The translations under genes were made by a program, and so were the position numbers. This document shows, in pieces, positions 14,437 to 39,736 of a stretch of DNA of 64,000 nt. The DNA lies in IMG/VR virus record IMGVR_UViG_3300025389_000011. The stretch is one strand, 5' to 3'. The notes below the pieces were generated by a model that did no database searches, was not told the DNA's origin, and saw only the letters and a list, made by a program, of their open reading frames with translations. Every line of letters begins with the position of its first letter. The first letter of the stretch is position 1. This DNA comes from a virus (lineage: Duplodnaviria > Caudoviricetes).

Positions 14437-14443
14437 TACTTAT
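14437..14443 (-). promoter_or_regulatory. Late-type promoter variant ATAAGTA, 5 nt before the ATG of the 1770-aa gene
   Basis: ATAAGTA-GTAAT-ATG with no SD; same spacing as at 2938 and 42804. Confidence 0.45.
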
Positions 14444-15921
14444 GAAAGTACTGTTATACCATAAAGTTTTTCAAATCTATCTGCATCATTACGGTCATTG
14501 ACCATGGGCTCACCACGTATGTTTAAACTTGTGTTTAATAACATAGGGCAACCGGTTAGTACATACCATTTTTCGAGTAGTTCTCGAATACCTGATCCAT
14601 CTTTAGGAACAGTTTGGATACGACTAGTGCCGTCATGATGAACGATAGCAGGAAATAAGTCAGGATACCTACAAGTACCGACGACTTGCATATACCTACT
14701 GTTATGCCAATTGAGAGGCATAGTAAAATAATCATTAACATACTCTTCCAGAATAACTGGGGCAAATGGTCTAAATTTTTGTCTACGTTTGATTTCATTT
14801 ACTTTATCCTTAATTTCATTTCCTCTAGGGTCTGCTAATAAACTACGATTGCCTAACGCTCTTGGTCCAAACTCTGCTCGTCCGTTTGCAACTCCCACGA
14901 TTTTACCATTAAGTAAAATATCAAGCAACTTGTTAGTAGGATAAGCCCCGGTAATATCAGTACCGAGAAAAGCATTATTCCAATTAACACGCTTACTATA
15001 ACCCAAGCCGGCACTGCCAAGACTATTCCCAGCATCGCCAGGATTAGGCATAATCCAAATGTTTTCATAGTATTTTCCTAAAATTCTATTTGCTACACAA
15101 TTAAGTGCTACTCCCCCACCATATACCAAATTTTTACTTGGTCCCAACACCTTTGCAAGTGTCACCACATTGGTTATTAATTGTTCAGTTAGCAACTGAG
15201 TACTTGTTGCCAAATCCATTGGATCAGCATTATGTATAAATTCTTTATCAACACCCGTGTGTAAATTTTCTTTAAATGTTATTGTAAGACTATCTTGTAG
15301 TAACTGTCTATGTAACTGGGCATAGTGTTTATTTTCACCATATGCTGCCATACCCATAAAAATATATTCTTCTTCGTTGGCTTTTAACCCAACGCTATCA
15401 GTCATGGCACTATAAAACAAACCAATACTATGTGGGTATTTTTTACCCCATAATTTTTTATATGTTGCAACACCATTAACATAACGTGCGTCCCAAATAC
15501 TTATAGTATCAAACTCACCTATCGCATCAATTACAACAACGGTTGCATCAACAAAACTGCTTGTTTGAAATCCACCAGCCGCATGACACAAATGATGTCC
15601 ATGTGTATGTATCTTTTTATTACCTAATAACTTCATATTTTCCTTGCCAATGATGTTACTAGCAAACAAACTACTAAGTTTAGGTTGTTCCCCGCTACGC
15701 AATTGTCTTAGAAATTTAATGGTAGGACGTTCATAGTAGTGCAATTCATAATCACCCTTAACATATGATAGTGCATCTAATATCAATTCACGATTTAAGT
15801 CTTTATCGTTTTTGATTTTACTATAGCGTTCGCTATGACCAGCGAACAAAATATTACCACTATCATCTATTACACTCAATGCACCATCATGAAATCCACA
15901 ACTAATGCCTATGTAGTTCAT
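14440..15921 (-). CDS. O-carbamoyltransferase, NodU/CmcH/TobZ family
   Basis: GISCGFHDGA, SERYSKIKND, HHLCHAA, VIDAIGE, EEYIFMGMAAYG, GGGVALNCVAN, GRAEFGPRALGNRSLLADP, RQKFRPFAP, LNTSLNIRGEP. Start taken at MNYIGIS (ATGA overlap with upstream gene). Confidence 0.92.
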   Translation of the reverse strand: MNYIGISCGFHDGALSVIDDSGNILFAGHSERYSKIKNDKDLNRELILDALSYVKGDYELHYYERPTIKFLRQLRSGEQPKLSSLFASNIIGKENMKLLGNKKIHTHGHHLCHAAGGFQTSSFVDATVVVIDAIGEFDTISIWDARYVNGVATYKKLWGKKYPHSIGLFYSAMTDSVGLKANEEEYIFMGMAAYGENKHYAQLHRQLLQDSLTITFKENLHTGVDKEFIHNADPMDLATSTQLLTEQLITNVVTLAKVLGPSKNLVYGGGVALNCVANRILGKYYENIWIMPNPGDAGNSLGSAGLGYSKRVNWNNAFLGTDITGAYPTNKLLDILLNGKIVGVANGRAEFGPRALGNRSLLADPRGNEIKDKVNEIKRRQKFRPFAPVILEEYVNDYFTMPLNWHNSRYMQVVGTCRYPDLFPAIVHHDGTSRIQTVPKDGSGIRELLEKWYVLTGCPMLLNTSLNIRGEPMVNDRNDADRFEKLYGITVLS

Positions 15922-16760
15922 TTGATATACTCTTTGGTTTTTTCTGCCCAATATTCGTGATGTATAGGTCCAAGATGACTTTTGTCTCTAGCCAAATCTT
16001 TTTCGATATCAGTTTCAGTATATTGTTTGTAAAATCTATCAAATACTCTACCAAATTGTGGTATAATTACTGCACTGGTTAAATCCATGTGTTTCAAAAA
16101 TTCGTATGTGTTACCGTCCCACGCTGAAAGATATATTTTGATATTTCTTTCTTTGGCAATTTTTTCTGCCAAATAAATATCATTCCTAAGGTTCTTGTAC
16201 ATATCTTCCTCAGGTGTACCTTTATACAATGATTCAACATCAACTTTGTATTTTTTTAACATAGGATCAGTAGATTGAGCTGATGACATATACAATATTT
16301 TATGTGTCTCTGCGTTAATTTTAGCTATCTGTAATCGCATATAGGGAGATAACACCAATATTGCATGTTTCATGGTTACATGTTTAGATATAATTAAAAA
16401 TAAATCTATGATACTTTTAGGTGACAATCCATTCATTGCAAAGTTCAAATGCGACATGTTTAATTGTTTAGCCAATAATGTATGCCACAACATGTCTACG
16501 GGTAATCCCAATCCTGCACAATAGCTACAACCAAAAATACCAATATCAGTTGTCGAAGGTATTTCATCGCTATCCATGCGAAATCCAAATTTATTATAGT
16601 TGTAATTAAATTTTGAATATTTCTTTTCCCATTCACTGGAAAATTTCATGTCATCGAGGCTAGCAAATTCAAGTTGAAATGAACTAGTCGCAGTTGTGTA
16701 AGAAGATACATCACTTATATTTTTTGAATCTAATAAATTCAATTTAGCTATACTTTTCAT
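15918..16760 (-). CDS. SGNH/GDSL-like hydrolase-fold protein
   Basis: YNKFGFR, IFGCSYCAGLG (block I), NFAMNGLS (block II), RDKSHLG (DxxH-like block V). Confidence 0.6.
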   Translation of the reverse strand: MKSIAKLNLLDSKNISDVSSYTTATSSFQLEFASLDDMKFSSEWEKKYSKFNYNYNKFGFRMDSDEIPSTTDIGIFGCSYCAGLGLPVDMLWHTLLAKQLNMSHLNFAMNGLSPKSIIDLFLIISKHVTMKHAILVLSPYMRLQIAKINAETHKILYMSSAQSTDPMLKKYKVDVESLYKGTPEEDMYKNLRNDIYLAEKIAKERNIKIYLSAWDGNTYEFLKHMDLTSAVIIPQFGRVFDRFYKQYTETDIEKDLARDKSHLGPIHHEYWAEKTKEYIK

Positions 16761-16783
16761 TTATAAATCCAATGTCATTGTTT

Positions 16784-16888
16784 TCATTTATAAATAAAAG
16801 GATCTCTTTTACGTAATTCTTTAATGCGTTTACGATAACGTAATTCCATTTTGATTTTATAGTATATATTTTTAATCCAACTAAACAT
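16784..16888 (-). CDS. 34-aa basic peptide (not in ORF track)
   Basis: MFSWIKNIYYKIKMELRYRKRIKELRKRDPFIYK*. Overlaps the stop of the upstream rSAM gene and fills the gap. Confidence 0.7.
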   Translation of the reverse strand: MFSWIKNIYYKIKMELRYRKRIKELRKRDPFIYK

Positions 16889-18155
16889 TTGTGTTCTCCT
16901 TGTTTATAGTGTCAATGATTTCTACAATGTCAGGGTAAATCTTTTTCCAATCTAGATTTCTTCTAACATCTAAATCATCTAAGAATCCATGTAAGTCGTT
17001 TACAGCTTTAACACTTACGGGAGTAGCCAACATTTGCTTTTTAATACCGGTTAATGAATTGATTTCCGGGCTATAATCTTTTTTATATTTATTAAGTGCT
17101 TCAATGGCTTTGTCTACATATGGCACCAAGTGCTTTCCAAAGTTATACGGGTTAAAGCAGTCAGGTCTAACCACTGTGTTCCAATTGAGGTTGGCAGTTT
17201 TATTTTTCAATATCCATTGACCACAGAACATGTCAATTAATTTATGCAATGCAGGTAATGTTACAGCAGTTAGTGTAGCATGTATTTGCAACACAACTCC
17301 CCAACTTTCTAACACGGTATTGATATTCTTTTCGCAATTTTCTAAGTTAAGACCATAACGTGCATACTCTAATTCTGGTCCCCAACAATCAATACTTGCA
17401 GTAATTTCAAAACGTTTTAATTTTTTAGCTTCTACTAATTTTTGAATTCTATTGATTTTTTCCTTGAACTTTTCAGGCTCATGATTTAGATTTGAAAAGA
17501 TACGCCAAATTAAATTTGGATTGTCATGTGTTTCAAAAAATTCTAAATGCTGTTCAAATTCTTTTTGATACATGGGCTCTCCACCCAATGTATTGTAAAT
17601 TACTAAATCTTTTGAGTTTTCATGCATCCATTCCCAGAATTGTTTTACATACTCATCATAGTTATCTCTGTCATCTGCTCTAAAGTTACTATAGTCATCA
17701 TTGAATTGGCTTTTACCATACTTACGTACTTCTTGTTCAATAACGCTACTAAAGCCGGGGGTACAATAAACGCATGATTGATTGCACACGTTGCTAAAGT
17801 ATACTTCCAACAGTCTAGGGTTTACGTTGATTTCTTTAGGGTTTGTTTCTAATTCATACGGAAGCAATTCAACTGATTTGTTTGCAAATCCAATTCTATC
17901 GCTTACCCCACCTGCTTGTTCAACATTGCGACAATATTCGCAACCGTTACCTGGCCATATACCTTCTAACATTTTTTCTCTATCACCTAATTTGCCCGGA
18001 TGATTATGAAAATCTTTTAGTGTATCTTTATTTAATTTCCAATGAAATCCACGATGGCAACTAGCAGTAGTTCCTCGATTTAAGAATAATGTGCTCCATG
18101 TCCATTTATATAGACATGCGGCATCGTTTACTATAGGGAATGTTTTTTTGTTCAT
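16881..18155 (-). CDS. Radical SAM protein, N-terminal twitch (CxxKW...SCH...CxxC type)
   Basis: CLYKW...SCH...CEYC, then CNQSCVYC and LGGEP. Confidence 0.9.
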   Translation of the reverse strand: MNKKTFPIVNDAACLYKWTWSTLFLNRGTTASCHRGFHWKLNKDTLKDFHNHPGKLGDREKMLEGIWPGNGCEYCRNVEQAGGVSDRIGFANKSVELLPYELETNPKEINVNPRLLEVYFSNVCNQSCVYCTPGFSSVIEQEVRKYGKSQFNDDYSNFRADDRDNYDEYVKQFWEWMHENSKDLVIYNTLGGEPMYQKEFEQHLEFFETHDNPNLIWRIFSNLNHEPEKFKEKINRIQKLVEAKKLKRFEITASIDCWGPELEYARYGLNLENCEKNINTVLESWGVVLQIHATLTAVTLPALHKLIDMFCGQWILKNKTANLNWNTVVRPDCFNPYNFGKHLVPYVDKAIEALNKYKKDYSPEINSLTGIKKQMLATPVSVKAVNDLHGFLDDLDVRRNLDWKKIYPDIVEIIDTINKENTNV

Positions 18156-18922
18156 ACTATATTTAAGGTTCTTTTAACCAATGGGAATAATTCTTGTCTG
18201 AAATACATTAAATGTCCGGCTTCATTAACATGATTGTCGATAAAATGATAATGGTTCCAATTGTGTTCAAAGTCCATACGCCCAGAAAAATCATACCTAG
18301 CTATATGTCTATATTGCAAATGTTTAAGTATTTCTAATTCTTTGAATTTAGTATTCATATCAGAATGTATTGTTTCGGGATTACACCATAAAAATTTTAT
18401 ATTTTTAGATGTTACAAACGAATAAGTTGCCAATGTTGACATTAAACTTTGATAATACATTATTGTGTCATTTGTAAGATATTTGTAAAACTGAACTCTT
18501 GCATTTCTATATTCATTATATGCGATTGGATATAATGGATTATTTATTTTATCCGGGTCATCGCCCCAAGCAGGGCACCACGGCACAATCATTTCAGGAT
18601 CTTTATACCCTGCTAAACTAAAACGATCCATGAATGTTCCATTAAATAACACCAATGCTATATCGTCATGTTGATTGATATAATCAACTGTGTCCTTGAA
18701 AATTCCAAATTGACTATTGCCCGGGCTTGCTAAATTAACTACATTATAATATGGTAACTGTTGATTTAATAATGTTGCCCAGCAGTATTCGCTAGAAGGG
18801 TCATTGGGATATTCAAAGGGTTTACCTAAATGAGTTTTTGTTTTCTCATCAAAATAATATATTCTATCCTTACAACCTTGACCATATGTATAGCTATCCC
18901 CTACTACTAATATTGTACTCAT
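18152..18922 (-). CDS. SGNH/GDSL-like protein
   Basis: VVGDSYTYGQG, NLASPGNS, DNHVNEAGH. Confidence 0.7.
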   Translation of the reverse strand: MSTILVVGDSYTYGQGCKDRIYYFDEKTKTHLGKPFEYPNDPSSEYCWATLLNQQLPYYNVVNLASPGNSQFGIFKDTVDYINQHDDIALVLFNGTFMDRFSLAGYKDPEMIVPWCPAWGDDPDKINNPLYPIAYNEYRNARVQFYKYLTNDTIMYYQSLMSTLATYSFVTSKNIKFLWCNPETIHSDMNTKFKELEILKHLQYRHIARYDFSGRMDFEHNWNHYHFIDNHVNEAGHLMYFRQELFPLVKRTLNIV

Positions 18923-19674
18923 TAACTAATTCCTAACTGTTTCATAAAGGGCATTATAACTCTATCAAAATAAATTTTATGTCCTGTGTCATTGCAATGT
19001 CCATCAGGCTGATAACATGTTTTATTAAATTCTTCATTTTCTCTTCCTGAAAAATCATACCTAAATATATGAGGGAAATAGTTAGGTACTAGTTTTGATA
19101 TTTTGTACTTTAGTTTAGAATAATCAACGCCAACCAGAGGCATAGACCAAGCAAATTGTGCGTTACATGCTTTGGCTACCCCATATATTCCCATGATACT
19201 GGTAAATGCATTTTGTAGACCAATACTATCATTATACAAGTATTTTGCATACATCATTTTTGCAGTACTATAATCTTTAGGATCATTGTCTCTGTAAAAA
19301 GAACCATCAAATTTGATAGACCAAGTTACTGGATCTTCTGGATTAAGATAGCTTGCCACTTCAATTCTGTCCATAAAAGCTCCGGCCGCTACAATTAAAT
19401 AGTCTGAATTTATATTGCTACTGGCATGTAGTGTCATTAAATCTCTAAACATTCCTGAATATGAATGTCCCGGTTTACTTGCATTTATTACCAATGCATT
19501 GTTAATATTGTTTTGTAACAAAGAACCCCAGCAATAATTGCTAGGTTTCAAGTGAAAGTCGGATGCCATACTTCCCACCCATACTTTCTTTTCAATATCA
19601 AAGTAATAATTTTTGTCTGAGCACCCATGTCCAAATGTAAAACTATCACCTAGCAGTATAATTCGTTTTATCAT
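18922..19674 (-). CDS. SGNH/GDSL-like protein (paralog of 18152-18922)
   Basis: LLGDSFTFGHGC, NASKPGHS, DGHCNDTGH. Shares GxGCxDxxYYFD and RYDFSGR with its neighbour. Confidence 0.7.
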   Translation of the reverse strand: MIKRIILLGDSFTFGHGCSDKNYYFDIEKKVWVGSMASDFHLKPSNYCWGSLLQNNINNALVINASKPGHSYSGMFRDLMTLHASSNINSDYLIVAAGAFMDRIEVASYLNPEDPVTWSIKFDGSFYRDNDPKDYSTAKMMYAKYLYNDSIGLQNAFTSIMGIYGVAKACNAQFAWSMPLVGVDYSKLKYKISKLVPNYFPHIFRYDFSGRENEEFNKTCYQPDGHCNDTGHKIYFDRVIMPFMKQLGIS

Positions 19675-19675
19675 T

Positions 19676-20428
19676 TCAATCTTTTTTGTCTAAATCTGTG
19701 GAGTATCTTTCGATAATTTCTTTGTTCTTGCAAGTAAGTTCAGGATTTTTATACAAGTCAATAATTTCAGGATATAGTTCCCAACACTCAGAAATTATTT
19801 TAGCAAAAATCATGTTTCTTTCTTTAGATAAATGACACCAACGATTGTCAACACGATTCATATTGGGCAATTCATTTCTACTTACTGATATTAAATTGTA
19901 TAAACATGGACCATGACGGTTATCTAAGTTGGTACTTAAATGTTTGTCTCTACGGTCTTCAAATGTTAACACATTTACTAATTTAATATTTTTGTTTCTG
20001 CATATATCATTTACATCATTGAAGATTTTTTGTTTTACCCAAACATCAAACTCAGTATCTATATTTATAGCACGACCAGTAAGAATTCTTACCATTTCAA
20101 GTTCTTGTTCAATTGTTAATTCTTTGTTTCTGCGTGTTTCATATAACTCATCGGGAGTGTTTAAGAAATGTAATCCTTCACAACCATGTGGCAAATGATG
20201 TATACGATGCAATGAAGAATGCATGAACACAATGTGGTCAAATTGGTCATGATGTGCTAAAAATTGCTGATATGCATACCACGTGCTGGTACCTGTTTTA
20301 CCATAAGTGGTTATCTTGTTTCCACCTTCTTCAATAAATCTAATCCAAGATTCGTCTTCCTTAAAGGGACTATCAGGATTGTGCGGAGCTCTATCCGCAA
20401 AACTATCTCCAAATACACCTATTCTCAT
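19676..20428 (-). CDS. SGNH/GDSL-like protein
   Basis: GVFGDSFA, YGKTGTS, RWCHLS. Confidence 0.6.
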   Translation of the reverse strand: MRIGVFGDSFADRAPHNPDSPFKEDESWIRFIEEGGNKITTYGKTGTSTWYAYQQFLAHHDQFDHIVFMHSSLHRIHHLPHGCEGLHFLNTPDELYETRRNKELTIEQELEMVRILTGRAINIDTEFDVWVKQKIFNDVNDICRNKNIKLVNVLTFEDRRDKHLSTNLDNRHGPCLYNLISVSRNELPNMNRVDNRWCHLSKERNMIFAKIISECWELYPEIIDLYKNPELTCKNKEIIERYSTDLDKKD

Positions 20429-20431: not shown

Positions 20432-21628
20432 TCATCCTTTTTTGATTACTTTATTTACATATAACTTGTCCATGGCAGATTTTTTACCACATGTTTCTAA
20501 ACAGAATAACAATTTACCACCTTCAATAGTTGGTCTACTCCATCCATCTAAAAAGAATTTTTGAAAGTAAGGACCGTTTAATACTTCTACCATATTATAT
20601 ACTTTCAAATCAAATTTATCAAGCCCATATTCTCTAATCAATGTGTTAAACTGAAAACGTGAATATGAACTATGAAATTGACCAAATACTCCACCCAAGA
20701 AACAACAAGGTAACATATACCCATTGGCTGATATGTATACTTCACCATGTTCAGGGTGTTCAATTGATTTACACGCTATGCCATCATTTTCTAAACTTTT
20801 ACCAAACTCGCTAATAATAGGTATATGTCTATCTTGTGCAGTACTTAATACACCTTTACTAAAATCAACTTTGTAACCTAAAGGCGGAGTATAAACTTCT
20901 TCTTTAGAAAAACTAGCATTTGCAGGCCAAATACTGTACTCGAAATATCCTTCTTTGTCATAAACATTAATAGGAGTTGGTTTGTCATCGTATTCACCAA
21001 AACCTAAAGGATTTTTCATTGAGAATATAAATCCCAACTCTTTTGCCAACTTTTGTGCTTCTTCTACTTGATGTTTATTGTGGTCAAATAACAGCCATTC
21101 CCATATTGCTTTGGCCCCGGTAGCACTATATGCTCTCATGTTAGCAATAACTTTTTCCCACTTGACCCCTCTGCGATAAATGTGATTTGTGTCTTCTAGT
21201 CCATCAACACTAAACACAACACCCGGTTGGTTAAACAAGTGATTGTCCCAAAATTTGGGAGTACGGTTTTGTTGTTCCGCAAAAAACTCACCCATGCTAG
21301 TCCAAAACTCAGTATTACGCATACCACCATTGGTTCTTACTTGTTGTATAACTTTACTTGAATGCTCTGAAAAATATTTCATGATTGGTAACAAGTCAGG
21401 AGCCATTCCAGGATCTCCAACATTACCGCAATAATTAATTCCAATTAAGTTTTGTGCTATCTCTACCGGAACCATTCTTTTAATATCTTCAAGCGATAGT
21501 TCTGTAAGTTCTAAGTCTGGTACTACTGCACCACCAGAAAAATTTCTACTACATGCCGGGCAACTGGCATTGCATCTACTTGATAACTCAATGTGCAGTC
21601 TTGCCACTTTATGATACATCTTATCCAT
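20432..21628 (-). CDS. Radical SAM protein with C-terminal SPASM/twitch-like domain
   Basis: CNASCPAC near the N-terminus, CGNVGDP, C-terminal ACKS...YISANGYMLPCC...CLETC. Confidence 0.9.
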   Translation of the reverse strand: MDKMYHKVARLHIELSSRCNASCPACSRNFSGGAVVPDLELTELSLEDIKRMVPVEIAQNLIGINYCGNVGDPGMAPDLLPIMKYFSEHSSKVIQQVRTNGGMRNTEFWTSMGEFFAEQQNRTPKFWDNHLFNQPGVVFSVDGLEDTNHIYRRGVKWEKVIANMRAYSATGAKAIWEWLLFDHNKHQVEEAQKLAKELGFIFSMKNPLGFGEYDDKPTPINVYDKEGYFEYSIWPANASFSKEEVYTPPLGYKVDFSKGVLSTAQDRHIPIISEFGKSLENDGIACKSIEHPEHGEVYISANGYMLPCCFLGGVFGQFHSSYSRFQFNTLIREYGLDKFDLKVYNMVEVLNGPYFQKFFLDGWSRPTIEGGKLLFCLETCGKKSAMDKLYVNKVIKKG

Positions 21629-22881
21629 TATTTTTTTCCTATATATTTTGCTAAATTGTCCGGTTTATTTCTACGCTTAGTGTACTGTTCAAAAAAGATA
21701 TCACTATCAACACGCAATTGTTGTTGATTTTCTTTCACTAAACCACTATCTAACATAGTTAATAATCTGTTGCAATGTTCTTGTTCAACAGGTAACAAAT
21801 CATTACTAATACTATCGTAAAATTTTGTATACTTGTCAATATAAAAATCACGTTCTTGTCGTGTTAGGCAACCAAAACCTTGAAAGTCTGGCTTGTCAAC
21901 CATGTTAATTGATATATAAGGTTTTACTTTGGTACGCTTACGTATGTCAATAATATCCAAATACATTTGATCCAAACTCTGTAACGCAATTGCGCTTACT
22001 GTGGTGCTGATTGTAAATTCTTTAACTGTACTGTTACCTAGTCTTTCTACATTTTCTAACCATTCACTATATACCATACCCTCACGAATAAACTCCGCAG
22101 TTTCTCCTGCGCTTTCATTACTGATATTCATGCGTAAGTTTGTAAGTTTACTAATCTTGTCAAAAAATCTGTCCATAACAACGGGCTTTTGACATAAGTT
22201 ACTGTGTATCACGCATTCAATGTGTGGGTTCATTTGTGTCATCATTTCAAACACACGAAACACTTCTTCATGCATTAAGGGTTCGCCACCACTAACACGT
22301 ATGCTTTCTAGTCCATCTGCAACGGTAGTGAACCAATCCCAAAACAAATTCATATCGGGAGGGTCAATCATTTGTTGTATCTCAGCAATATCTTTTTGAT
22401 AATGTCTGCGGTCGTCAGTTGTAATGTCCTGATAGACTCCTTGATTTCTAATATCATTCATCCATGCTGTACTGAACTGCGGACTGCAATAGCTACATGC
22501 TAAGTTACATGTATTCTGAAATGCTAATTCTAATGCTTTGGGCTTGAATACGTAGTTAGGATTTTTATAATCATCTGCACTTAGATGGTCTTTGAAACTT
22601 AAACTTTTACGTGTTCTGTCACTACGCAAGCCTAAGTTTTCATAATGCCAACAGCTATTACATGCAGGAGGTTGTTCACCTGCTAACATACGCTTTTGTT
22701 GTTCACGTTTTTCAGCAGGATTATAAAATGTATCTACTGTGTTGCCCACTTGAATAAAGGGAGTATAATGACAACTTGCTATTTTACCCGAGTATACCCA
22801 AATACTTGCTTCATGGAACTTAGCCAAACACATTGTTGGACTGGTTTCATCACGTATCTTGAAAAGTTTTTTCTCATCCAT
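21628..22881 (-). CDS. N-twitch radical SAM protein
   Basis: CLAKF...SCH...CNSC; CNLACSYC; VSGGEP. Confidence 0.9.
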   Translation of the reverse strand: MDEKKLFKIRDETSPTMCLAKFHEASIWVYSGKIASCHYTPFIQVGNTVDTFYNPAEKREQQKRMLAGEQPPACNSCWHYENLGLRSDRTRKSLSFKDHLSADDYKNPNYVFKPKALELAFQNTCNLACSYCSPQFSTAWMNDIRNQGVYQDITTDDRRHYQKDIAEIQQMIDPPDMNLFWDWFTTVADGLESIRVSGGEPLMHEEVFRVFEMMTQMNPHIECVIHSNLCQKPVVMDRFFDKISKLTNLRMNISNESAGETAEFIREGMVYSEWLENVERLGNSTVKEFTISTTVSAIALQSLDQMYLDIIDIRKRTKVKPYISINMVDKPDFQGFGCLTRQERDFYIDKYTKFYDSISNDLLPVEQEHCNRLLTMLDSGLVKENQQQLRVDSDIFFEQYTKRRNKPDNLAKYIGKK

Positions 22882-31657: not shown

Positions 31658-32780
31658 ATTCTATCGCCATTTCTTTGTATTCGGGAAACGCATTAATAAA
31701 TGATTCTTCCCTACGTAAATCAACTTCTTTTAATCTTGCTATTGCCGCTGTCATCAAATTTGATTTATCTTTACTGTTCATAAATAAAACCATTCCCTTC
31801 AATGTATCCATATTAACTTTATTTTTATCAATACTATTAAAATATTTTTCAACACGTGTTTTGATATTTTTAGGTAATACTTGCAAATTAAACAAATCTG
31901 AGTATACTGTATTAAAATTAATTTGTGGTTTATTATCAAAAGAAGCTAGTGCATCAATTATCTTTTCTACATGAAAAACATTTGGCCAAGATATAGTTAC
32001 TGTATACTCTAATTTAACATTTGGCATTAATTGTTTAACTTGTTTAACGTTATTAATAATTGTATCCCATTTTTCTCCATGTCTCCAATATTCGGCAGAA
32101 TCTTCAACTGCATCTATACTTACTCTAAAAATAACATCACTAAAATGTTTCCATTTATCAAAAATGTGTTGGTTCTTAAATGTCAATAGTGATGCATTAC
32201 TGTAATATAACAACTGAGGGTCTAGTTTGTTTTCTATAAGATAATCTAAAAAGTCCCAATGTTGCCATTGTAGTAGAGGCTCTCCTCCACTAAAGGTAAC
32301 TGTTTTTAGATTACTAGCAATTTGCTTTGACTGATTTAATATAAAATTTTCATCTATCCCAGAATAACGTAATACCGGAAACTTCCAATTTAAGTATTTT
32401 TTTTCTTCTGTGGCAATTGGTGAACTGGTATTTGGTATGCACGTTCTGCATTTAGAATTGCATATGTTTGAAAATCTAACTTCTAAGTGAGAAAAATTAT
32501 CTGATTCAAAAATAGTTTTATCAGTTTTTGACAACCAAAATTGTCTATTGCTACCAATATTTTGGTCTATCTCCTCTAAATTATAACATGAATTACATAA
32601 TGGATTTCTAATACCATTTTTCATGTCTGATTTTAATTGTTGTAGTTTTTCGTCTTTCAGATATTCATCAATTGTTTTGACATTGACCATGTTGTTTAAC
32701 GAACAGGGTCCCATTTTGTTGTCCATGTCATAATGAACAGCACCAAAAGCCAATGGACATATATATCTGTTATCGGTCAT
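31647..32780 (-). CDS. N-twitch radical SAM protein
   Basis: CPLAF...GPCS...CNSC; CNSKCRTC; FSGGEP. Confidence 0.88.
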   Translation of the reverse strand: MTDNRYICPLAFGAVHYDMDNKMGPCSLNNMVNVKTIDEYLKDEKLQQLKSDMKNGIRNPLCNSCYNLEEIDQNIGSNRQFWLSKTDKTIFESDNFSHLEVRFSNICNSKCRTCIPNTSSPIATEEKKYLNWKFPVLRYSGIDENFILNQSKQIASNLKTVTFSGGEPLLQWQHWDFLDYLIENKLDPQLLYYSNASLLTFKNQHIFDKWKHFSDVIFRVSIDAVEDSAEYWRHGEKWDTIINNVKQVKQLMPNVKLEYTVTISWPNVFHVEKIIDALASFDNKPQINFNTVYSDLFNLQVLPKNIKTRVEKYFNSIDKNKVNMDTLKGMVLFMNSKDKSNLMTAAIARLKEVDLRREESFINAFPEYKEMAIEYGY

Positions 32781-34309
32781 TGTAAATCTGGGTTAACAAA
32801 CACATCTTTACTAGGATCTTCAGCAGGATGAATTGGAATATACCCTGTACCATCACTATATTGACCTGTTGTGATTTCTGTTTCAGTTGGTAAGTCTGTG
32901 TCAATACTATCGTAAAAGTCTACAAACTCTTGCGGGAATGTATTACGGAAGTCTTTACCTCTACGAATATCATATTGATGGTAGAATTGTTTAAAGTCAC
33001 GTTTGTTTTGCTCAGGGTCTTTAACATTTTTGTGCGGAGTTTTAATAACGTCAAGATAGTCAATCAGTCGTTGTGTTTGCTCACGCTCAATATGCATAAG
33101 AATTGGGCTACCGCCTGTTGTTCTTTCATCTTTTGCAATTTGTTCATCTAACCATACTTGTAGTTTTTCGCTGTACTTTTGACGAACATCCATTGGCAAT
33201 AATGAGCAACTTTGAAAGCTAGGGAAACGTAAGATGTTCAAACTCATTGTTGGATAGTGAGTGTCATGCTTACGCTTAAATGCTAGTATTTCATCCATGA
33301 ACTCAGTAATACTTGCTAAACACAAACTATTGATTGTCATCATAATGTGTGTCTTTTTGATATTACCTTCAGTATGTAAACGTGTTAAATTATGAATCCA
33401 TTTATCCCAAATGAAACCATCACGAATATATTCGCTATGTGCGCCTAAACTTTCTGCGCTAGTGTATACTTCTAAGTGCGGGACAAAGTGACTTAACTCA
33501 ATCAATCTATCCATGATATCATCTTTAGGAACTAAGTTACTGTTAATCGCATAACGCATAACTTTTCCATCTTTACGATTTTTAACACGTTCTTGATTTG
33601 CTTTGAACCATTCGAATAGTTTCCATACGCCCGGAGCCATTAATGGCTCCCCACCTGTAATGCGAATTTCTTCTAAGTTATCTGCAAGACCATCTTCTTG
33701 TTCCCACCAACGCCAAAAGGCTTGAATATATGGGTTAACTTCATCAGGCAATGGCTTTGCGTGGTCTGCCGCATTAACAAAGTGACTACGGGCATCACCA
33801 TCGATGTTACGATATGGGCCATACTTGTGAATGTCTTTTACCCATGTTGTGCTAAAACTAGGGTTACAATAACTGCAACCAAAGTTGCATGTTCTATCAA
33901 AACTAATTTCTAATGTACGCAACATTGTGTTTTCTTGCCAATCTGCTTTGGCAGTTTTTAAAATATGTTCTTCTTCAAATACAGCAGTCTTGTATACGCG
34001 GTCACTGATGTTGTTACGACCAATATCTTCAATCTTCCAGCAGTACTCACACTCTTGTGGACGTGTGCCTTCCTGCATCATTTTACGCATAAGTTTTTTA
34101 TGTGGAGTATTATGAATTGCTGAAGGGTTTTCAATCAATTCATTGGCATCAATTTGATGACCTAATGGGTGGTGACAGCTTGTTGTTTGACCATTACCCA
34201 ACCAAATAGTTGCGTTTAGCCATTTTGCCGCACAATAACTCTCACTAATTGGATCAATCAATCGTGCTTTATACTCTGCAAAACTTTCTGTGTGTTTTTT
34301 ACCTGCCAT
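32777..34309 (-). CDS. N-twitch radical SAM protein
   Basis: CAAKW...SCHH...CEYC; CNFGCSYC; ITGGEP. Confidence 0.9.
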   Translation of the reverse strand: MAGKKHTESFAEYKARLIDPISESYCAAKWLNATIWLGNGQTTSCHHPLGHQIDANELIENPSAIHNTPHKKLMRKMMQEGTRPQECEYCWKIEDIGRNNISDRVYKTAVFEEEHILKTAKADWQENTMLRTLEISFDRTCNFGCSYCNPSFSTTWVKDIHKYGPYRNIDGDARSHFVNAADHAKPLPDEVNPYIQAFWRWWEQEDGLADNLEEIRITGGEPLMAPGVWKLFEWFKANQERVKNRKDGKVMRYAINSNLVPKDDIMDRLIELSHFVPHLEVYTSAESLGAHSEYIRDGFIWDKWIHNLTRLHTEGNIKKTHIMMTINSLCLASITEFMDEILAFKRKHDTHYPTMSLNILRFPSFQSCSLLPMDVRQKYSEKLQVWLDEQIAKDERTTGGSPILMHIEREQTQRLIDYLDVIKTPHKNVKDPEQNKRDFKQFYHQYDIRRGKDFRNTFPQEFVDFYDSIDTDLPTETEITTGQYSDGTGYIPIHPAEDPSKDVFVNPDLQ

Positions 34310-34318: not shown

Positions 34319-35884
34319 TTAATGTTTGGTATACGCTTTAATACATTCTCTCCAGTACCATTTTAGTTCTGGAAATATTTCCATAAAATTTGTTTGCCTA
34401 CGTCTATCGTACTCACTAATAAACATGTAGAAGTTAGTTTTATTTAGTGACACTTGGTCCGCTGGCAAAGATTCTTGCATTATAGCAAGGTCTCGCTTGA
34501 TTTTCAATATCTCATAGGGTTTAAATCCTTCGAATGTTTCCGAATAGTCTTCACCTTGTACGTTGTCTTCCATATATTTCAAACAACGTTCTACTTCTTT
34601 GATACCATATTCTCCTGCATTTTGTATGCTGAACCATGGTGGATAACGTAGAATGGGTATGTCAAAGAATACACGTTGATATTTCTTTTGCTTATAAACT
34701 TTGTGTACAATATTATTTTCTTTTTCAGTTTCAGTTTGTTCGGGTGCGATTGTAAACTCAGTTTGGGCACGTCCACCAAATTCTTCACGTAGTGTTAAAA
34801 TCATTTCTAAAAATTTATGTAAGCTGGGAATGCTTAACATGTTGAATGTATTGATAAAACTAACTGTGCTGTATTTTGTTTCACGTAAAAAGGTACGAAC
34901 ATTGTTCAACAATCTGTCAAACTCTAATCCAGTACGCATATATTCTGCTTGTTCCCCAAATCCATCTAATGATACAAACAACCAAAAGTGCTTGAAGCCT
35001 TTGTCTACATACCAATGATTACCGCTGAACTCATTAAAGTTTTCCTTGTCTTCATATGTACGTAATTCTTCTAGTGCCTTTACTTTTTCTAAAAACTTAT
35101 CAAATAGTTTTTGATCTGGAGGACACATGTTACTTGTTATACTTAATTCAAGTTGACCATGTGGGTTTTCATTTACATAGTCTAATACTTTAAATGTGTT
35201 TTTGTCCATGAGTGGTTCACCGCCGGTCATTCTAAAAACACGTAACTTACGATAAATCTCAGGAAACCATTGCCAAAATGCTTCAACATATGGATTATCT
35301 TTAGCCGCAACCTTAAGTGGCATTAGTCCCTTTTTCTCCAAATGCTCTAAGTTGTTGTGTGTCATGTCAGATAATTTATACCCACCATGTTTTTTAACTT
35401 CTTCTTCCCAACTTGTGCTTAGGTGAGGACTGCAATACATGCACTTGAAATTACATGCTTGATTAAAATTAACCTCTACATAGCGAGGGGTAACATTATA
35501 GTCAAAACTATTTGTTGTTACTTCGTCAAATGTTGGTGCGTTCCACCACTCACTACTGCGATAATGTCTATCACTCATGTGACCTTTGGGGTCATCACTT
35601 TGTGCATCTTCTACTTTCCAACAGTAACTACAACCCTCAGGTCTTTCACCGTTGAGCATTTGTTTGCGTTCATGTATTTTGATAGGTGTATTGTGTAATA
35701 CACTAGGATTATCTTTTAATAACTCTAGTGGAATCTTATGCGTAGGAGGATGGTAACAGCTTTGTGTTAATCCACTTGGCAAGTGTATTGAAACTTGTTG
35801 CCATTTTGCGAGACATAGTGATGGACTGACCGCATTCAAGCGGTCACGCATGTCTCTAGCATATTGGTCGTACTCACCCGACAT
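34319..35884 (-). CDS. N-twitch radical SAM protein
   Basis: CLAKW...SCYH...CSYC; CNFKCMYC; MTGGEP. Confidence 0.9.
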   Translation of the reverse strand: MSGEYDQYARDMRDRLNAVSPSLCLAKWQQVSIHLPSGLTQSCYHPPTHKIPLELLKDNPSVLHNTPIKIHERKQMLNGERPEGCSYCWKVEDAQSDDPKGHMSDRHYRSSEWWNAPTFDEVTTNSFDYNVTPRYVEVNFNQACNFKCMYCSPHLSTSWEEEVKKHGGYKLSDMTHNNLEHLEKKGLMPLKVAAKDNPYVEAFWQWFPEIYRKLRVFRMTGGEPLMDKNTFKVLDYVNENPHGQLELSITSNMCPPDQKLFDKFLEKVKALEELRTYEDKENFNEFSGNHWYVDKGFKHFWLFVSLDGFGEQAEYMRTGLEFDRLLNNVRTFLRETKYSTVSFINTFNMLSIPSLHKFLEMILTLREEFGGRAQTEFTIAPEQTETEKENNIVHKVYKQKKYQRVFFDIPILRYPPWFSIQNAGEYGIKEVERCLKYMEDNVQGEDYSETFEGFKPYEILKIKRDLAIMQESLPADQVSLNKTNFYMFISEYDRRRQTNFMEIFPELKWYWRECIKAYTKH

Positions 35885-36548
35885 TGTATTCCAATAAATT
35901 AAACATTTCTACTAACTTATCATAATCAGCAAAAAATTCTTTAGGAGTTATATTGTATATATTTTTTACCACTTCACCGATTGGCACAGGTTCTATGTCT
36001 TCATACACCAGTGTATTGTCGCAAGGAAATCTATTAAGTTCTAGAATTTTCTTTATAAAATTATTAATTTCACGTATATCATACTTAACTGGTAAAGGCA
36101 TACCAAGTTGCGAAAAAGTATCATATTTGTATTGTCGATTGGTATGCAAAAAAATACAATGTGACATAAAATGATTTATATAGTTTCTTCTATACAATTT
36201 AATTAAATGATAGTTATCATTATACCATTTAAAACTACTAGGATTGCATGAAATCATATCTAATTCTGTATAGACAATTGTGCCAACACTATAACTATCG
36301 TTATTAGCTGTTACTTTTTGTAGTTTTTCAACCATGTTGAAATATGAATATTCATCGTCGGTGCCTTCCACATCAAATCTATCTGTAAAATACTCACCAT
36401 TATCATTATAAGGAATATTACTCTCTGCTAGTCTAGAACCTACTAATGCACGTAGAAAATTAGAACCAGAACGCATAGTTCCAATAATTATTGTGCCTTT
36501 TTTGTTTAAATCAAATAGTTGAGAGTTTAGCACATTTTTAGAATCCAT
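35874..36548 (-). CDS. Sulfotransferase-like protein (Stf0-type P-loop)
   Basis: IIIGTMRSGSNFL (5'-PSB-like loop), LIKLYRRN...FMS (3'-PB-like), LVYED. Confidence 0.65.
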   Translation of the reverse strand: MDSKNVLNSQLFDLNKKGTIIIGTMRSGSNFLRALVGSRLAESNIPYNDNGEYFTDRFDVEGTDDEYSYFNMVEKLQKVTANNDSYSVGTIVYTELDMISCNPSSFKWYNDNYHLIKLYRRNYINHFMSHCIFLHTNRQYKYDTFSQLGMPLPVKYDIREINNFIKKILELNRFPCDNTLVYEDIEPVPIGEVVKNIYNITPKEFFADYDKLVEMFNLLEYNVG

Positions 36549-36549: not shown

Positions 36550-37503
36550 TCACCAACCTTCGATTCTGCGAATGACTTCCATTTCTGTTACCAATGGTCC
36601 TAAATTACGTGCATCTGCTTTATAGTGGCGTTTGAAAAACTTACTTTGTTCTGCGGTATGCATACACATAGGTAAACCTAACTTAGCACTTAAATCATCT
36701 CCGTACTTTTTAATTAACTGTAATGGATCTTCATTTTTAACATTTTCCCACATTGCAAGATAGTTATCAAACCATTGAACTTCAATATGATTCCAGTCAG
36801 TCAGCATTGTCATGTACGTTCCCATACGTGCGCCCATGATTGCCCATTCTCCGTTTTCGGCATCTAATCCAATGTTATGCCAAATTGTTAGATTATTCAT
36901 ATTACGCATGGCTACAGTTTCTTTGAATACATCTACTGAGGGTACCGCACCTTTGTCTAAACACATCTTAACACCTTCACGGAATCCAGCACGCCATGCT
37001 TGGAAGGGAGTTTGATTTGGATATGTAGTTGAATAACAATCATGCATAGCCCAGTATAGATTATCTTTACTATCTAAACAAAAATCAGCAATACGTGTTA
37101 TATCACCTTCTGTTTGATTTTCATGTGTTTGCATTTCACGCACGTATGTTTTTGTCCAACTACTCATACCACCGTTACCATAACGTAACCCATTGATAGC
37201 ATTGATAGCTTTCCAACGAAACTGTGCTTTTTTAAATGTTTCCTCTTTATCAGTAAAATCTAGTTGAATGTTGAAGAAATTTTCTTGTGGCATATTATCG
37301 CCATCAATAAGAATAAAACGTTCTGTTTCACTGGCTTCACCTGCGGCTTTATGTGCGGCATCACTACCTTTGACACCGTCAACACGTTTGGCCCAAGGTA
37401 CCATGTTTTTAATCTTTAACCAGAATTCTTCTTTCTGTGGTTCATCATAACTAAGATAAATGCAATCTAAGTCTGCTACATCAATAATATCATCCGAGTT
37501 CAT
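36550..37503 (-). CDS. GT-A-like putative glycosyltransferase
   Basis: DCIYLSYDEP, RVDGVKGSDAAHKAA, FILIDGDN (DxD), NGLRYGNGG, AWRAGFREGVKM. Confidence 0.6.
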   Translation of the reverse strand: MNSDDIIDVADLDCIYLSYDEPQKEEFWLKIKNMVPWAKRVDGVKGSDAAHKAAGEASETERFILIDGDNMPQENFFNIQLDFTDKEETFKKAQFRWKAINAINGLRYGNGGMSSWTKTYVREMQTHENQTEGDITRIADFCLDSKDNLYWAMHDCYSTTYPNQTPFQAWRAGFREGVKMCLDKGAVPSVDVFKETVAMRNMNNLTIWHNIGLDAENGEWAIMGARMGTYMTMLTDWNHIEVQWFDNYLAMWENVKNEDPLQLIKKYGDDLSAKLGLPMCMHTAEQSKFFKRHYKADARNLGPLVTEMEVIRRIEGW

Positions 37504-37861
37504 ATATAGTAAGTTTCCATTTCATTTTATCATTAAATGATTCGTCAACTACGATACTTACATCCTCGCTATAACAACTGATTCCGTCATTGCTTGGCAT
37601 TAATTTATAAACAACAGCATCTGCTTTCGCTGTTGAAATTCTACCATCAATAACTTTTATATCATGACGGGCTTCGGCAAATGTTTGTTTATCGATAACA
37701 ATATAGTTACCACCTTCAATATGGCAGGATTTATCTCCTACATATGAAATAACATTACCTTTATCGTCATAATATAATCTAAATTCGGGAGGCACCATAA
37801 CAGGTGGTTCCCAAACAATAAGAAAATCTGCGTTTTTGTCTTTTACGTATCTGACTGTCAT
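37490..37861 (-). CDS. Hypothetical protein
   Basis: 123-aa ORF with overlapping start/stop junctions on both sides. Confidence 0.7.
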   Translation of the reverse strand: MTVRYVKDKNADFLIVWEPPVMVPPEFRLYYDDKGNVISYVGDKSCHIEGGNYIVIDKQTFAEARHDIKVIDGRISTAKADAVVYKLMPSNDGISCYSEDVSIVVDESFNDKMKWKLTIYELG

Positions 37862-38607
37862 TTTATGCTTTCCAGTATTTTATCAGAAAAATTCTTAATA
37901 TGATAGTGAAATGGATATTGTTGTGATACTGTTTGCACTCTAATTTGGTTTGGTAAACATTCGTACACAAATGTGTCTGTCCAATTTTCAGTTGGGTTGT
38001 TGTTTACAAACTGTTTCATGTGTACCATACTCATTTCATTAAATGAAGGTAATGTTGTTTTTTCAACTCCTACAATATGACATGCAATAGCATATGCCCA
38101 ATCTGTACTAACTTCTTCTTGCGGTTTACATCTTAGTGTAGCTTTATACGTTTCCCAATTTTCAAATACATCTTTAACAACTTCAAAAAATGCTTTTGCT
38201 GTGTCAGATTTTTTAAAGTATGTTATGGCATTGTATACATCTGGTAATTTATTATCATCAATAAATCTACGGTAGGTTCTTGCATCTGAAATTTCTTGTT
38301 TGTAATTTCTAATTGTAGTTGATACAACAACATCTTGTAATGCCAAAATATCCCACCAGTGCTCTATACTGCGTGGTATATACATGTCACTTTCTAATTT
38401 GATTGTTTCATCATATGGGCTAGCCTCATATACTTGCCAATCATTTTGATATCCACCTAAATCTCCATATGGTAACATATCACTGGTTATAATTGTAATA
38501 TTTGCATTAGGCATTACACGTAGTATGCTTTTACTTAATGCTTCAGCACATTTTGTATATTTTGTTTGCTCGGTATCCTGAGCCATGATTACAAACCCTT
38601 TACTCAT
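37858..38607 (-). CDS. GT-A (GT8-like) glycosyltransferase
   Basis: SPYDETIKLESDMY, YNAITYFKK, STDWAYAIA; paralog of 38604-39407. Confidence 0.65.
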   Translation of the reverse strand: MSKGFVIMAQDTEQTKYTKCAEALSKSILRVMPNANITIITSDMLPYGDLGGYQNDWQVYEASPYDETIKLESDMYIPRSIEHWWDILALQDVVVSTTIRNYKQEISDARTYRRFIDDNKLPDVYNAITYFKKSDTAKAFFEVVKDVFENWETYKATLRCKPQEEVSTDWAYAIACHIVGVEKTTLPSFNEMSMVHMKQFVNNNPTENWTDTFVYECLPNQIRVQTVSQQYPFHYHIKNFSDKILESIK

Positions 38608-39407
38608 GCTATAAGCTCCATAAAATTATCTTTGTTCATCATGTGAAAGTCTGTATCTTTAACCATTGAATATTCTTTACGAATTTTTCCTTTAGTCCAG
38701 TTATCAAACATAACGGTATATTCTGTGTTGAATTCATCATCATTGTTTCTGTATACACTTGTGTTTTTACCAACGTGTACCAAATTCCATGGAATAATAT
38801 CTTCGGTAGGAGAAGTATGACCATTGGTAATACGTGCGGCTAATGTTAGTGCATAATCATTTCTAAATGTAATAGAAATAAAACCGTGCAATGTTGCATA
38901 GTGGTCGTAATTAGATTGAATCATTTCTAAACATTCAAATATTTGTTTAGCACGATTTGTCTTTTTGAACATTACAACAGTTGCCCACATAGTCTTAAAA
39001 CTATATACGCTAATCATGTCTTGGTCAGAGTTTGGATGCATTAAAAAACTAGTAGAATCATGGCAACAAAAATCTGTTGGCAATTCAAAAAGTTTTAACA
39101 ACTTATCTGAATTAACCATGTAATCTGTGTCCAATAGTATTGTTTCATCATATGGACTTAAGTCATAAGCACGAAATCTACCTTTATTCATCCACACACC
39201 CCATTCACGACTATTGGTTTTATCGGCTGTGGTTATAATGGTATTATCAAAAATATAAGTTTGATTTTGTGGCAATGACTCTTCATCCGTTACCAATGTA
39301 ACTGGAAGTCCCAAAAAGTGATTAATACGTTTAGCAGTAGCCACTGCCATTTCGTAATAATTGTATTTTGGACTATTAAAGGCGAATAATAGTACCCCTT
39401 GGCTCAT
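38604..39407 (-). CDS. GT-A (GT8-like) glycosyltransferase
   Basis: SPYDETILLDTDY (DxD), WATVVMFKK, FRNDYALTLA. Confidence 0.7.
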   Translation of the reverse strand: MSQGVLLFAFNSPKYNYYEMAVATAKRINHFLGLPVTLVTDEESLPQNQTYIFDNTIITTADKTNSREWGVWMNKGRFRAYDLSPYDETILLDTDYMVNSDKLLKLFELPTDFCCHDSTSFLMHPNSDQDMISVYSFKTMWATVVMFKKTNRAKQIFECLEMIQSNYDHYATLHGFISITFRNDYALTLAARITNGHTSPTEDIIPWNLVHVGKNTSVYRNNDDEFNTEYTVMFDNWTKGKIRKEYSMVKDTDFHMMNKDNFMELIA

Positions 39408-39709
39408 CTGTTATTCTCTAGTTCTGTCCATTCATCGTGCCAATCACTCATTACTGTTGTATAAGTATCTTGTAATTTGGCTAACAATGTTTTTCTGTCT
39501 ACTTTGACAGGATTGTTAAAAGTGTCAATAAGAATTACTTCTTTTGACTTGCTTGAATTCAAAAAATTGATGGTTGTTAAATCAGCACGCCAAAGACCAT
39601 TTTGTTCGGCAACAATAAGTTTGCTGTCGTATTTGTCTTTTAAATAGGCTTTGGCTGAGTTATGATTGAAACGTGCTTTGGCTTCGTTAATTAATGTCTT
39701 TGTGTCCAT
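39404..39709 (-). CDS. Hypothetical protein, first gene of the modification operon
   Basis: 101 aa; SD AGGAGAG; ATGA-type overlap with the GT gene. Confidence 0.75.
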   Translation of the reverse strand: MDTKTLINEAKARFNHNSAKAYLKDKYDSKLIVAEQNGLWRADLTTINFLNSSKSKEVILIDTFNNPVKVDRKTLLAKLQDTYTTVMSDWHDEWTELENNR

Positions 39710-39728
39710 GTATATACTCTCCTATGAG

Positions 39729-39736
39729 TATTTATA
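39729..39736 (-). promoter_or_regulatory. T4-type late promoter TATAAATA heading the 39709-14440 operon
   Basis: Exact TATAAATA in the intergenic gap, just upstream of the SD. Confidence 0.7.

Follow-up and report, generated by a model that had tools for sequence, protein, structure and literature searches.

A jumbo-phage operon with a dozen domain-permuted radical SAM enzymes behind glycosyltransferase and tail genes: a candidate pathway for building and tailoring a glycan

Why should a bacteriophage devote some 25 kb directly behind its tail genes to thirteen radical S-adenosylmethionine (SAM) enzymes, packed together with genes resembling glycosyltransferases (GTs), a sulfotransferase and a carbamoyltransferase? 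The question is raised by a 64,000-nucleotide stretch of DNA from an uncultured virus (the window), taken in reverse complement from the 103-kb IMG/VR virus record IMGVR_UViG_3300025389_000011 (Duplodnaviria; Caudoviricetes), whose CheckV completeness of 29% implies a jumbo-phage genome of ~350 kb. An earlier annotation of this DNA, made without database searches (the original prediction), had read the run of genes as a late-expressed pathway that glycosylates virion proteins and heavily modifies the sugars. From profile, structural and comparative analyses we arrive at a related reading: a cytoplasmic pathway that builds and tailors a glycan in a jumbo myophage resembling Rak2 and XacN1, for which the neighbouring fibre and baseplate proteins would be the most likely acceptors. 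We give this reading about an even chance of being right.

The genes considered here are all encoded on the minus strand (Table 1), and their content, the folds and families of their products, their conserved synteny and their orthogroup structure are matters of direct observation. As first predicted, they form a nearly gap-free run: 24 open reading frames (ORFs; g1 to g24) between 39709 and 14440 mostly overlap or abut, the only breaks in spacing being 52 nt ahead of g1 and 120 nt ahead of g23. Since no convincing coding-strand intrinsic terminator was found from 39700 to 3236 (the first lies at 3236-3213), and no promoter-like box precedes g25, the unit probably comprises 25 genes over ~30 kb, g25 being its likely last member. 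Neither transmembrane segments nor signal peptides were predicted in any operon protein. A megablast search with the entire operon against cultured phages gave no match.

The Pfam Radical_SAM domain was found in all 13 proteins originally taken for such enzymes (g7 to g18 and g22), preceded in several by a match to the SPASM model, at residues 6-114 and thus N-terminal to the Radical_SAM match. Twelve of them can be assigned to the NCBIfam family N_Twi_rSAM (NF033640; curated cut-off 170 bits): ten score 232-365 bits, with g14 at the cut-off and g13 slightly below it (166.2 bits), while g18, of conventional orientation, scores 38 bits and is not a member. The 12 paralogs are only 19-32% identical to g16 when aligned, and nonetheless share invariant C19, C79, C82, C136, C140, C143 and G199-G200-E201, with C38 kept in at least 90%; the four cysteines of the auxiliary cluster thus lie N-terminal to the CxxxCxxC/GGE core. 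Conservation of the twitch cysteines, CxxxCxxC and GGE throughout suggests that all 12 are catalytically intact. In a tree of 71 sequences each N_Twi paralog forms its own orthogroup, and seven or eight of the orthogroups, from among those of g7, g8, g10, g11, g12, g13, g16 and g17, are shared by all six related phages, as is g18; g7 is 89-91% identical in relatives. Intact motifs combined with separate orthogroups indicate that the paralogs are old and non-redundant, and point to distinct steps. The AlphaFold2 (AF2) model of g16 (predicted local distance difference test, pLDDT, 94.6) has no close solved relative, its best structure matches being GDGT-MAS, BlsE, anSME, SkfB and DesII (TM-score ~0.33), with CteB and SuiB also among the best. 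Cellular homologs of the family do exist in AFDB, at TM-scores up to 0.82, and these matches suggest Bdellovibrio-like bacteria among the carriers. A contig scan with one N_Twi protein recovered no relative, and the alignment of the 12 paralogs held no stretch conserved enough for such a scan.

Ahead of this array stand three genes for which a GT-A-like fold had been predicted. For g5, whose family counts 1144 clusters at 50% identity, an alignment of 60 sequences taken from these clusters gave an AF2 model (pLDDT 91), and its residues 4-168 match many GT-A enzymes by VIA-align (Z 8-10.2; root-mean-square deviation 3.1-3.6 Å over 138-145 residues), with Z up to 10.2 against B4GALNT1, STIV A197, SpsA, the peptide S-glycosyltransferase SunS and PBCV-1 A64R; Mimivirus R655 is also among the matches. 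Because same-fold nucleotidyltransferases likewise score Z ~8, transferase chemistry is deduced from the DxD motif, of which D67 and D69 are kept in at least 90% of the 60 homologs. Atlas searches with g5 found only unnamed viral clusters. A profile of 38 homologs of g3 matches glycogenin-1/2 (GT8; E 4.4e-6) over positions 3-109, the half that binds the nucleotide sugar, and the Atlas features of its paralog g2 score 0.96-0.97 against nucleotide-diphospho-sugar transferase/GT8 clusters. The GT-A assignment therefore holds for g5 by fold and for g3 by profile, and is weaker for g2, where it comes from paralogy and Atlas features. The predicted sulfotransferase, g6, is supported by Atlas features (0.95-0.97) and structure (TM-score 0.64-0.72) against Stf0/Sulfotransfer_3/NodH clusters and carries GTMRSGSNFL near its N-terminus, with no Pfam, NCBIfam or Protein Data Bank (PDB) sequence match. 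Single-sequence PDB searches with g2 and g6 gave nothing usable; searches of Pfam, NCBIfam and PHROGs with g1-g6, g19-g21 and g23 gave nothing significant apart from a match of g3 to phrog_1903, a family with no annotated function.

At the far end of the run, g24 was correctly recognized as a carbamoyltransferase: it matches PF16861 (E 3.5e-48) and PF02543 (E 1.1e-30), and both domains exceed their gathering scores (Carbam_trans_N 107.7 bits, cut-off 24; Carbam_trans_C 163.8 bits, cut-off 27). Against the NodU equivalog NF041651 it scores 123.4 bits under a cut-off of 1000, and is thus a member of the family rather than a NodU ortholog. Four SGNH-like proteins had also been proposed, a claim that finds some support for two of them. 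Both g20 and g21 carry GDS and DxxH motifs; their own Lipase_GDSL matches are weak (E ~0.03), but the domain is detected in four of 16 homologs (best E 1.5e-5), and g21 is homologous by hhalign to gp200, gp201 and gp203 of Ralstonia phage RsoM2USA (E 1.5e-5). The other two, g19 and g23, show motifs and marginal hhalign matches to the g20/g21 group (E 0.004 at low probability, and E 1e-3 at 22% probability, respectively), g23 having no Pfam match.

Comparison with other genomes, a check that the original prediction had itself proposed, shows the order of structural genes, GT trio and radical SAM array to be conserved. The close relatives examined were G001 (352 kb, complete), G002 and G003 (both partial); G004 and G005 are contigs of ~92-97 kb, each ~28% of a genome. 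Five upstream genes, u5-u4-u3-u2-u1, are collinear with g1 through g25 in G001, G002 and G003, and N_Twi copy number ranges from 9 to 17 in relatives. An IMG/VR scan with the g8 alignment showed that at least 551 viral loci encode g8 relatives. Among the best 79 of these, g7 and g8 are adjacent in 77 and a carbamoyltransferase occurs, within limited flank, in 17; in 59 of the 67 loci (88%) for which at least 4 kb of sequence precedes the first radical SAM gene, homologs of g5 and of g2/g3 lie directly upstream of the radical SAM genes, and of the 49 loci with at least 7 kb, 29 have u1 or u3 ahead of the cassette. Accessory enzymes swap between relatives in a serotype-like manner: the sulfotransferase slot is empty in G002 and holds a NodS-like methyltransferase in G001 (L011:5564-6166), a short-chain dehydrogenase/reductase (SDR) is inserted within the G001 array (L011:10661-11353), and G004 and G005 carry Asp/Asn-hydroxylase-like 2-oxoglutarate (2OG) oxygenases.

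The only cultured phage found to carry g5 is RsoM2USA, in which a miniature of the cassette follows the tail genes: gp353 (g2), gp352 (g3), gp350 (g5), gp349 (g7-type) and gp348 (g5-like), with gp349 as its sole radical SAM enzyme and sister to the g7 group in the tree. A second cassette elsewhere in that genome holds a carbamoyltransferase (gp199, 46% identical to g24), three GCS-type SGNH-like genes and a g8 ortholog (gp202, 49% identical). The cassette genes are all annotated as hypothetical, and virion proteomics covered the ten strongest bands only (PMC8504454). The cultured Vibrio phage K566 (OZ196521.1, 255 kb) bears four to five distant N_Twi-type radical SAM genes at 161.5-180.2 kb, where the gene context differs and no GT trio could be detected.

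Genes that could supply such a pathway accompany it. An NDP-sugar epimerase/dehydratase (PF01370) is encoded by all relatives tested and by this genome (7.3 kb beyond the window), and in RsoM2USA lies inside the tail/GT locus. A-type Fe-S carriers (IscA-like) occur in G001 (139714-140016 and 275742-276053), G002 (179816-180118) and G003 (132062-132364); RsoM2USA, with just two N_Twi genes, yielded none. In G001, moreover, a stretch at 95.2-100.5 kb (L013:5201-10511) brings together ThyA, an NDP-sugar 4,6-dehydratase/epimerase, a DegT aminotransferase and a further pair of radical SAM genes (~325 residues) that differ in type, a cluster that calls to mind the amino-sugar chemistry of DesI/DesII; the present genome fragment lacks the aminotransferase and this pair of radical SAM genes.

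The position of the operon bears on its acceptor and timing. Tail or baseplate genes with very S/T/N-rich products had been noted directly ahead of it, and their homologs agree: the homologs of u3 in Rak2-like and Atu_ph07 jumbo phages bear structural or baseplate annotations, u2 matches Peptidase_G2, a C-terminal intramolecular-chaperone domain of tail spikes, and the u5/u4 region corresponds to RsoM2USA gp362, annotated as a baseplate wedge, and gp361 (>288 kDa), which was detected in virions by mass spectrometry (PMC8504454). The upstream structural proteins contain 27-37% S+T+N (u1, 37%), as against 14-24% in the enzymes. The gp361 homolog u4 (42813-61826, minus strand) is a protein of 6337 residues with no Pfam match, its orthologs in relatives ranging from ~3970 to 6291 residues.

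As claimed at the outset, the operon is headed by an exact TATAAATA, a T4-late-promoter-like box. The word is not enriched in the window (3 copies, 13.7 expected), so it counts only through its position. Boxes of the form (G/T)ATAAATA precede u5 and u2 by 24-30 nt and d1 by 48 nt, and the one ahead of u2 is kept in all four close genomes. A second promoter type, TTGACA-N17-TATAAT, heads small genes beyond the window start. At 89.4-93.6 kb of this genome (G000), each of several small genes follows a near-identical TTGACAATAAATC-N-TATAAT, early-type promoters clearly unlike the boxes that head the structural genes. Given the two promoter types and a box at g1 that is incompletely conserved, co-expression of the operon with the tail genes appears likely, while late timing is something that we infer from promoter motifs only.

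These same features bear on the idea that the pathway serves the infected cell, either by remodelling a host envelope glycan (lipopolysaccharide or capsule intermediates on the cytoplasmic face) or by making a soluble aminoglycoside- or nucleoside-like metabolite against competitors, superinfecting phages or grazers. NodU/TobZ carbamoyltransferases, twitch radical SAM enzymes, SDRs, DegT and methyltransferases do constitute an aminoglycoside/Nod-factor toolkit; carbamoyltransferases termed 'Nol-like' occur commonly in cyanophages and pelagiphages (137 phage records) and have no demonstrated link to virions; the carbamoyltransferase/SGNH/g8 cassette of RsoM2USA sits apart from structural genes; and the operon is followed by two proteins of secreted, mucin-like appearance. 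We nevertheless consider this quite unlikely, as the operon encodes no priming transferase, flippase, polymerase or exporter and indeed no membrane protein, its leading box is of the fibre-gene type rather than a sigma-70-type early promoter, and the baseplate/fibre gene order is conserved across distant relatives.

Hypermodification of phage DNA, for example the glycosylation and tailoring of a modified base, seems to us very improbable. Phage GTs often do glycosylate DNA, radical SAM enzymes participate in thymidine hypermodification (PMC5889632), and RsoM2USA has a second, divergent thymidylate-synthase-like gene (85 bits; MG752970.1 7739-8398), which could be a pyrimidine hydroxymethylase and has no counterpart in G001. 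The present genome and G001 each encode one ThyA homolog (~355 bits) and no hydroxymethylase-like copy, however; by location and promoter the cassette belongs with the tail genes rather than the replication genes; and no precedent is known in DNA modification for a pathway of this size. The case first made against DNA hypermodification, from late timing and structural neighbours, is thereby slightly strengthened, through the single canonical ThyA of the complete relative G001.

A glycan-building and tailoring pathway thus appears the best reading, in view of the conserved gene order, the paralogs' own orthogroups, the swapping of accessory enzymes, and the NDP-sugar and Fe-S carrier genes. Its substrate and each of its reactions are, like its timing, what we infer from these features. 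Transcription of the operon would accompany that of the tail and baseplate genes. Sugars would be loaded onto an acceptor by two GT8-like transferases and a virus-specific GT-A transferase, from NDP-sugars partly made by the phage itself; a dozen non-redundant twitch-type radical SAM enzymes would then rewrite the sugar units, probably by oxidation, epimerisation, deoxygenation, decarboxylation or C-C chemistry, by analogy with BtrN, DesII, BlsE and AprD4; and O-acyl handling by SGNH-like proteins, sulfation and carbamoylation would finish them. Virion proteins are a plausible acceptor, most likely at least one of the S/T/N-rich fibre or baseplate proteins next door, and the outcome would be a hyper-decorated virion coat. 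Tentatively, we would go further and suggest the largest radical SAM pathway known in any virus, in which at least 12 N-terminal-twitch enzymes might each carry out a radical reaction of its own, with a protein-linked glycan or the fibre proteins themselves as substrate, yielding a hyper-tailored coat that accessory sulfo-, methyl-, carbamoyl- and acyltransferases diversify in the manner of a serotype locus.

Several observations weigh against this assignment. The nearest solved structures to g16 act on lipids, nucleoside sugars and peptides alike, and we know of no NF033640 member with a known substrate or reaction. Direct support for g2 is weak, its family profile matching glycogenin alone (E 0.14), and two of the four SGNH assignments (g19 and g23) are weakly supported. 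A high S/T/N content is normal for fibre proteins, and common descent, rather than function, may explain part of the synteny seen inside a single phage clade. As to timing, the orthologous g1 site in the three closest relatives reads TCTAAATA, so that TATAAATA is exact here only, and [TG]ATAAATA was found within 700 nt upstream of g2 in only 8 of 56 diverse loci; as a conserved promoter, the box gains from its counterparts at u2, u5 and d1 and loses by these comparisons. Finally, G004 and G005 carry eight N_Twi genes and g18 in the company of 2OG oxygenases, a DNA ligase and an endonuclease, and no GT, carbamoyltransferase, SGNH or structural gene was found on either contig, so the array can evidently travel alone. 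The carbohydrate reading first proposed is reinforced by the GT-A fold with its DxD, the putative carbohydrate-type sulfotransferase fold, the carbamoyltransferase, the NDP-sugar genes, the accessory swapping and the gene order, and weakened by these GT-free arrays.

The GT-free arrays are among the observations that invite the view that the radical SAM enzymes modify protein directly, in the manner of anSME or of the maturases of RiPPs (peptides made on the ribosome and modified after translation), by introducing cross-links, epimerised residues or oxidised side chains into giant virion proteins (u4) or g25, with the GTs as a secondary or separate layer. The oxygenases beside them belong to a family known to act on proteins, most characterised SPASM/twitch enzymes modify peptides, and four such enzymes (anSME, SkfB, CteB and SuiB) are among the best structure matches of g16. 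The operon moreover probably ends in g25, with 16 near-identical tandem repeats of ~66 residues (FDFSWxPDP...YIYVWGN) and a C-terminal g5-like domain that lacks DxD; its orthologs follow the carbamoyltransferase in G001-G003. The repeat motif is, however, a duplicated piece of the g5 GT-A-like domain, not a typical substrate core, and the array of repeats is confined to close relatives, being absent from RsoM2USA, G004/G005 and the 79 diverse loci, a pattern of co-occurrence that disfavours the repeats as radical SAM substrate. No Pfam match to a RiPP recognition element (RRE/PqqD) was found on any of the 13 radical SAM enzymes, nor did the arrays contain or adjoin any short ORF for a repeat or precursor, negatives that leave room for a large protein as substrate, and the radical SAM genes keep a fixed order with the GT trio in 88% of informative loci. 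We therefore regard direct modification of protein as unlikely, and retain the glycan pathway as the preferred reading.

Table 1. Positions in the window of the operon genes, the box that heads them and the adjacent structural genes.
Feature	Position	Strand	Basis or remarks
u3 (206 aa), u2 (419 aa, fibre/spike), u1 (317 aa)	39762..42645	-	conserved structural neighbours
T4-late-promoter-like box TATAAATA	39729..39736	-	19 nt ahead of g1 ATG, upstream of AGGAG
g1, 101 aa	39404..39709	-	no family match; weak T4 Gp45.2 match (E 0.023); kept in relatives
g2, GT8-like GT-A transferase (putative), DTD motif	38604..39407	-	Atlas features; g3 paralog
g3, GT8-like GT-A transferase	37858..38607	-	38-homolog profile to glycogenin-1/2
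g4, 123 aa	37490..37861	-	no matches; kept in close relatives
g5, virus-only GT-A-fold family with C-terminal helical domain	36550..37503	-	AF2, VIA-align, Foldseek
g6, Stf0/NodH-like sulfotransferase	35874..36548	-	Atlas features and structure
g7, N_Twi radical SAM, core orthogroup	34319..35884	-	NF033640 288 bits
g8, N_Twi radical SAM, core orthogroup	32777..34309	-	NF033640 290 bits
g9, N_Twi radical SAM, variable	31647..32780	-	NF033640 260 bits; divergent tree branch
g10, N_Twi radical SAM, core	30248..31657	-	NF033640 295 bits; in 55/79 loci
g11, N_Twi radical SAM, core	29077..30255	-	NF033640 345 bits
g12, N_Twi radical SAM, core	27797..29080	-	NF033640 283 bits; 87-89% identity in relatives
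g13, N_Twi-like radical SAM, shortened N-terminus	26673..27806	-	NF033640 166.2 bits (cut-off 170)
g14, N_Twi-like radical SAM	25514..26671	-	NF033640 170.0 bits; recent g13 paralog, 42% identical
g15, N_Twi radical SAM	24205..25521	-	NF033640 338 bits; SPASM PF13186 at residues 14-82
g16, N_Twi radical SAM, core	22881..24224	-	NF033640 365 bits; AF2 pLDDT 94.6
g17, N_Twi radical SAM, core	21628..22881	-	NF033640 242 bits; 86-89% identity in relatives
g18, conventional-orientation radical SAM	20432..21628	-	CxxxCxxC at residue 19, C-terminal Cys-rich domain
g19, possible SGNH-like	19676..20428	-	GDS at residues 7-9; unconfirmed
g20, SGNH/GDSL-like	18922..19674	-	GDS and DGHxNxxGH; Lipase_GDSL_2 E 0.028
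g21, SGNH/GDSL-like, g20 paralog	18152..18922	-	motifs; weak Lipase_GDSL match
g22, N_Twi radical SAM	16881..18155	-	NF033640 232 bits
g23, 280 aa, possible SGNH-like, GCS replacing GDS	15918..16760	-	motifs; unconfirmed
g24, NodU/CmcH/TobZ-family carbamoyltransferase	14440..15951	-	PF16861, PF02543; likely start ATG 15921
g25, 1770 aa, tandem repeats and C-terminal g5-like domain	9119..14431	-	repeat analysis; probable last gene

Directly after g25, on the same strand, two ORFs (7923-9050 and 6080-8002) encode proteins with signal peptides, one with a lipobox-like LLCTS, and long low-complexity tracts of N, T, S and Q (34-46% S+T+N), and have their own GATAAATA box at 9098; these features suggest mucin-like proteins that are secreted or belong to the envelope, rather than parts of the virion. 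Further downstream, ARAGORN identified a permuted two-piece transfer-messenger RNA (tmRNA; 4879-5317, minus strand; tag peptide ANDSVYSLAA). Such split molecules are characteristic of Alphaproteobacteria, some Betaproteobacteria and cyanobacteria, and this one may hint at the host. A further glycosyltransferase (phrog_2170; 223-1227) and a RimK-like ATP-grasp protein (phrog_2599; 1300-2184), both on the minus strand, have homologs ~11 kb upstream of the stand-alone array in G005.

What appears to be new here is a phage operon in which 12-17 domain-permuted radical SAM enzymes are fixed behind a GT trio and tail genes, and which is widespread in viral metagenomes; one transferase of the cassette has more than 8000 near-identical metagenomic relatives. 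The enzyme classes themselves are already known, as is virus-encoded glycosylation of virions, in chloroviruses, mimiviruses and mycobacteriophages, with a handful of transferases each. If a tailored glycan is indeed carried on the tail fibres, it would have a bearing on how hosts are recognized, how stable the virion is and how the phage evades defence or grazing in natural waters, and would imply a dozen new radical sugar reactions. On the bolder reading of a serotype-like locus, it would also add a new layer to the arms race of phages with hosts or grazers, together with a reservoir of new enzyme chemistry. The matter can be put to a direct test, since the cultured phage RsoM2USA carries a miniature cassette.

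In the literature we found no description of the N_Twi family or of such an array beyond a gene count: the marine T4-like genome TARA_ERS488813_N000010 was reported to have 12 radical SAM genes and an A-type Fe-S carrier (Nishimura et al. 2017, PMC5332604). That report places the count in the context of Fe-S metabolism and gives neither family, operon nor function. The papers on 'moraphage' (PMC12619734) and the S-SCSM2R cyanophage (PMC12801897) do not describe the cassette.

Among known systems, some comparable ones are viral. Mycobacteriophages carry glycans on capsid and tail tube (Freeman et al. 2023, as cited in PMC12619734), and chlorovirus PBCV-1 (A64R) and Mimivirus (R655) encode GT-A proteins, both among the structure matches of g5, beside structural genes; these systems use few GTs and simple tailoring with no radical SAM array. 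By enzyme class, the comparison is with antibiotic and sugar pathways: BtrN, DesII, BlsE and AprD4, radical SAM enzymes with a single auxiliary cluster, and the NodU/TobZ-family carbamoyltransferase TobZ all act on sugars. Those pathways employ one or two such radical SAM enzymes, as against thirteen here, and their auxiliary domain is C-terminal rather than N-terminal; BlsE and DesII share with g16 only the common core (TM-score ~0.33, 14-19% identity). Nod-factor synthesis likewise uses the three decorating classes predicted in this phage group, carbamoylation (NodU), sulfation (NodH) and methylation (NodS), although the operon has no chitin-oligosaccharide synthase and g24 is not the NodU ortholog. 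The His-Xaa-Ser and polytheonamide systems resemble the locus in combining tandem radical SAM paralogs with an adjoining repeat protein, but here no RRE or precursor peptide was found, the repeat protein is inconstant, and the GTs are the constant partners. Within NF033640 itself, twelve genes of this operon match the family model from end to end, with its N-terminal cluster cysteines, and it is the expansion of that single family, with 12 paralogs gathered in one operon and 9-17 copies among relatives, that sets the phage cassette apart.

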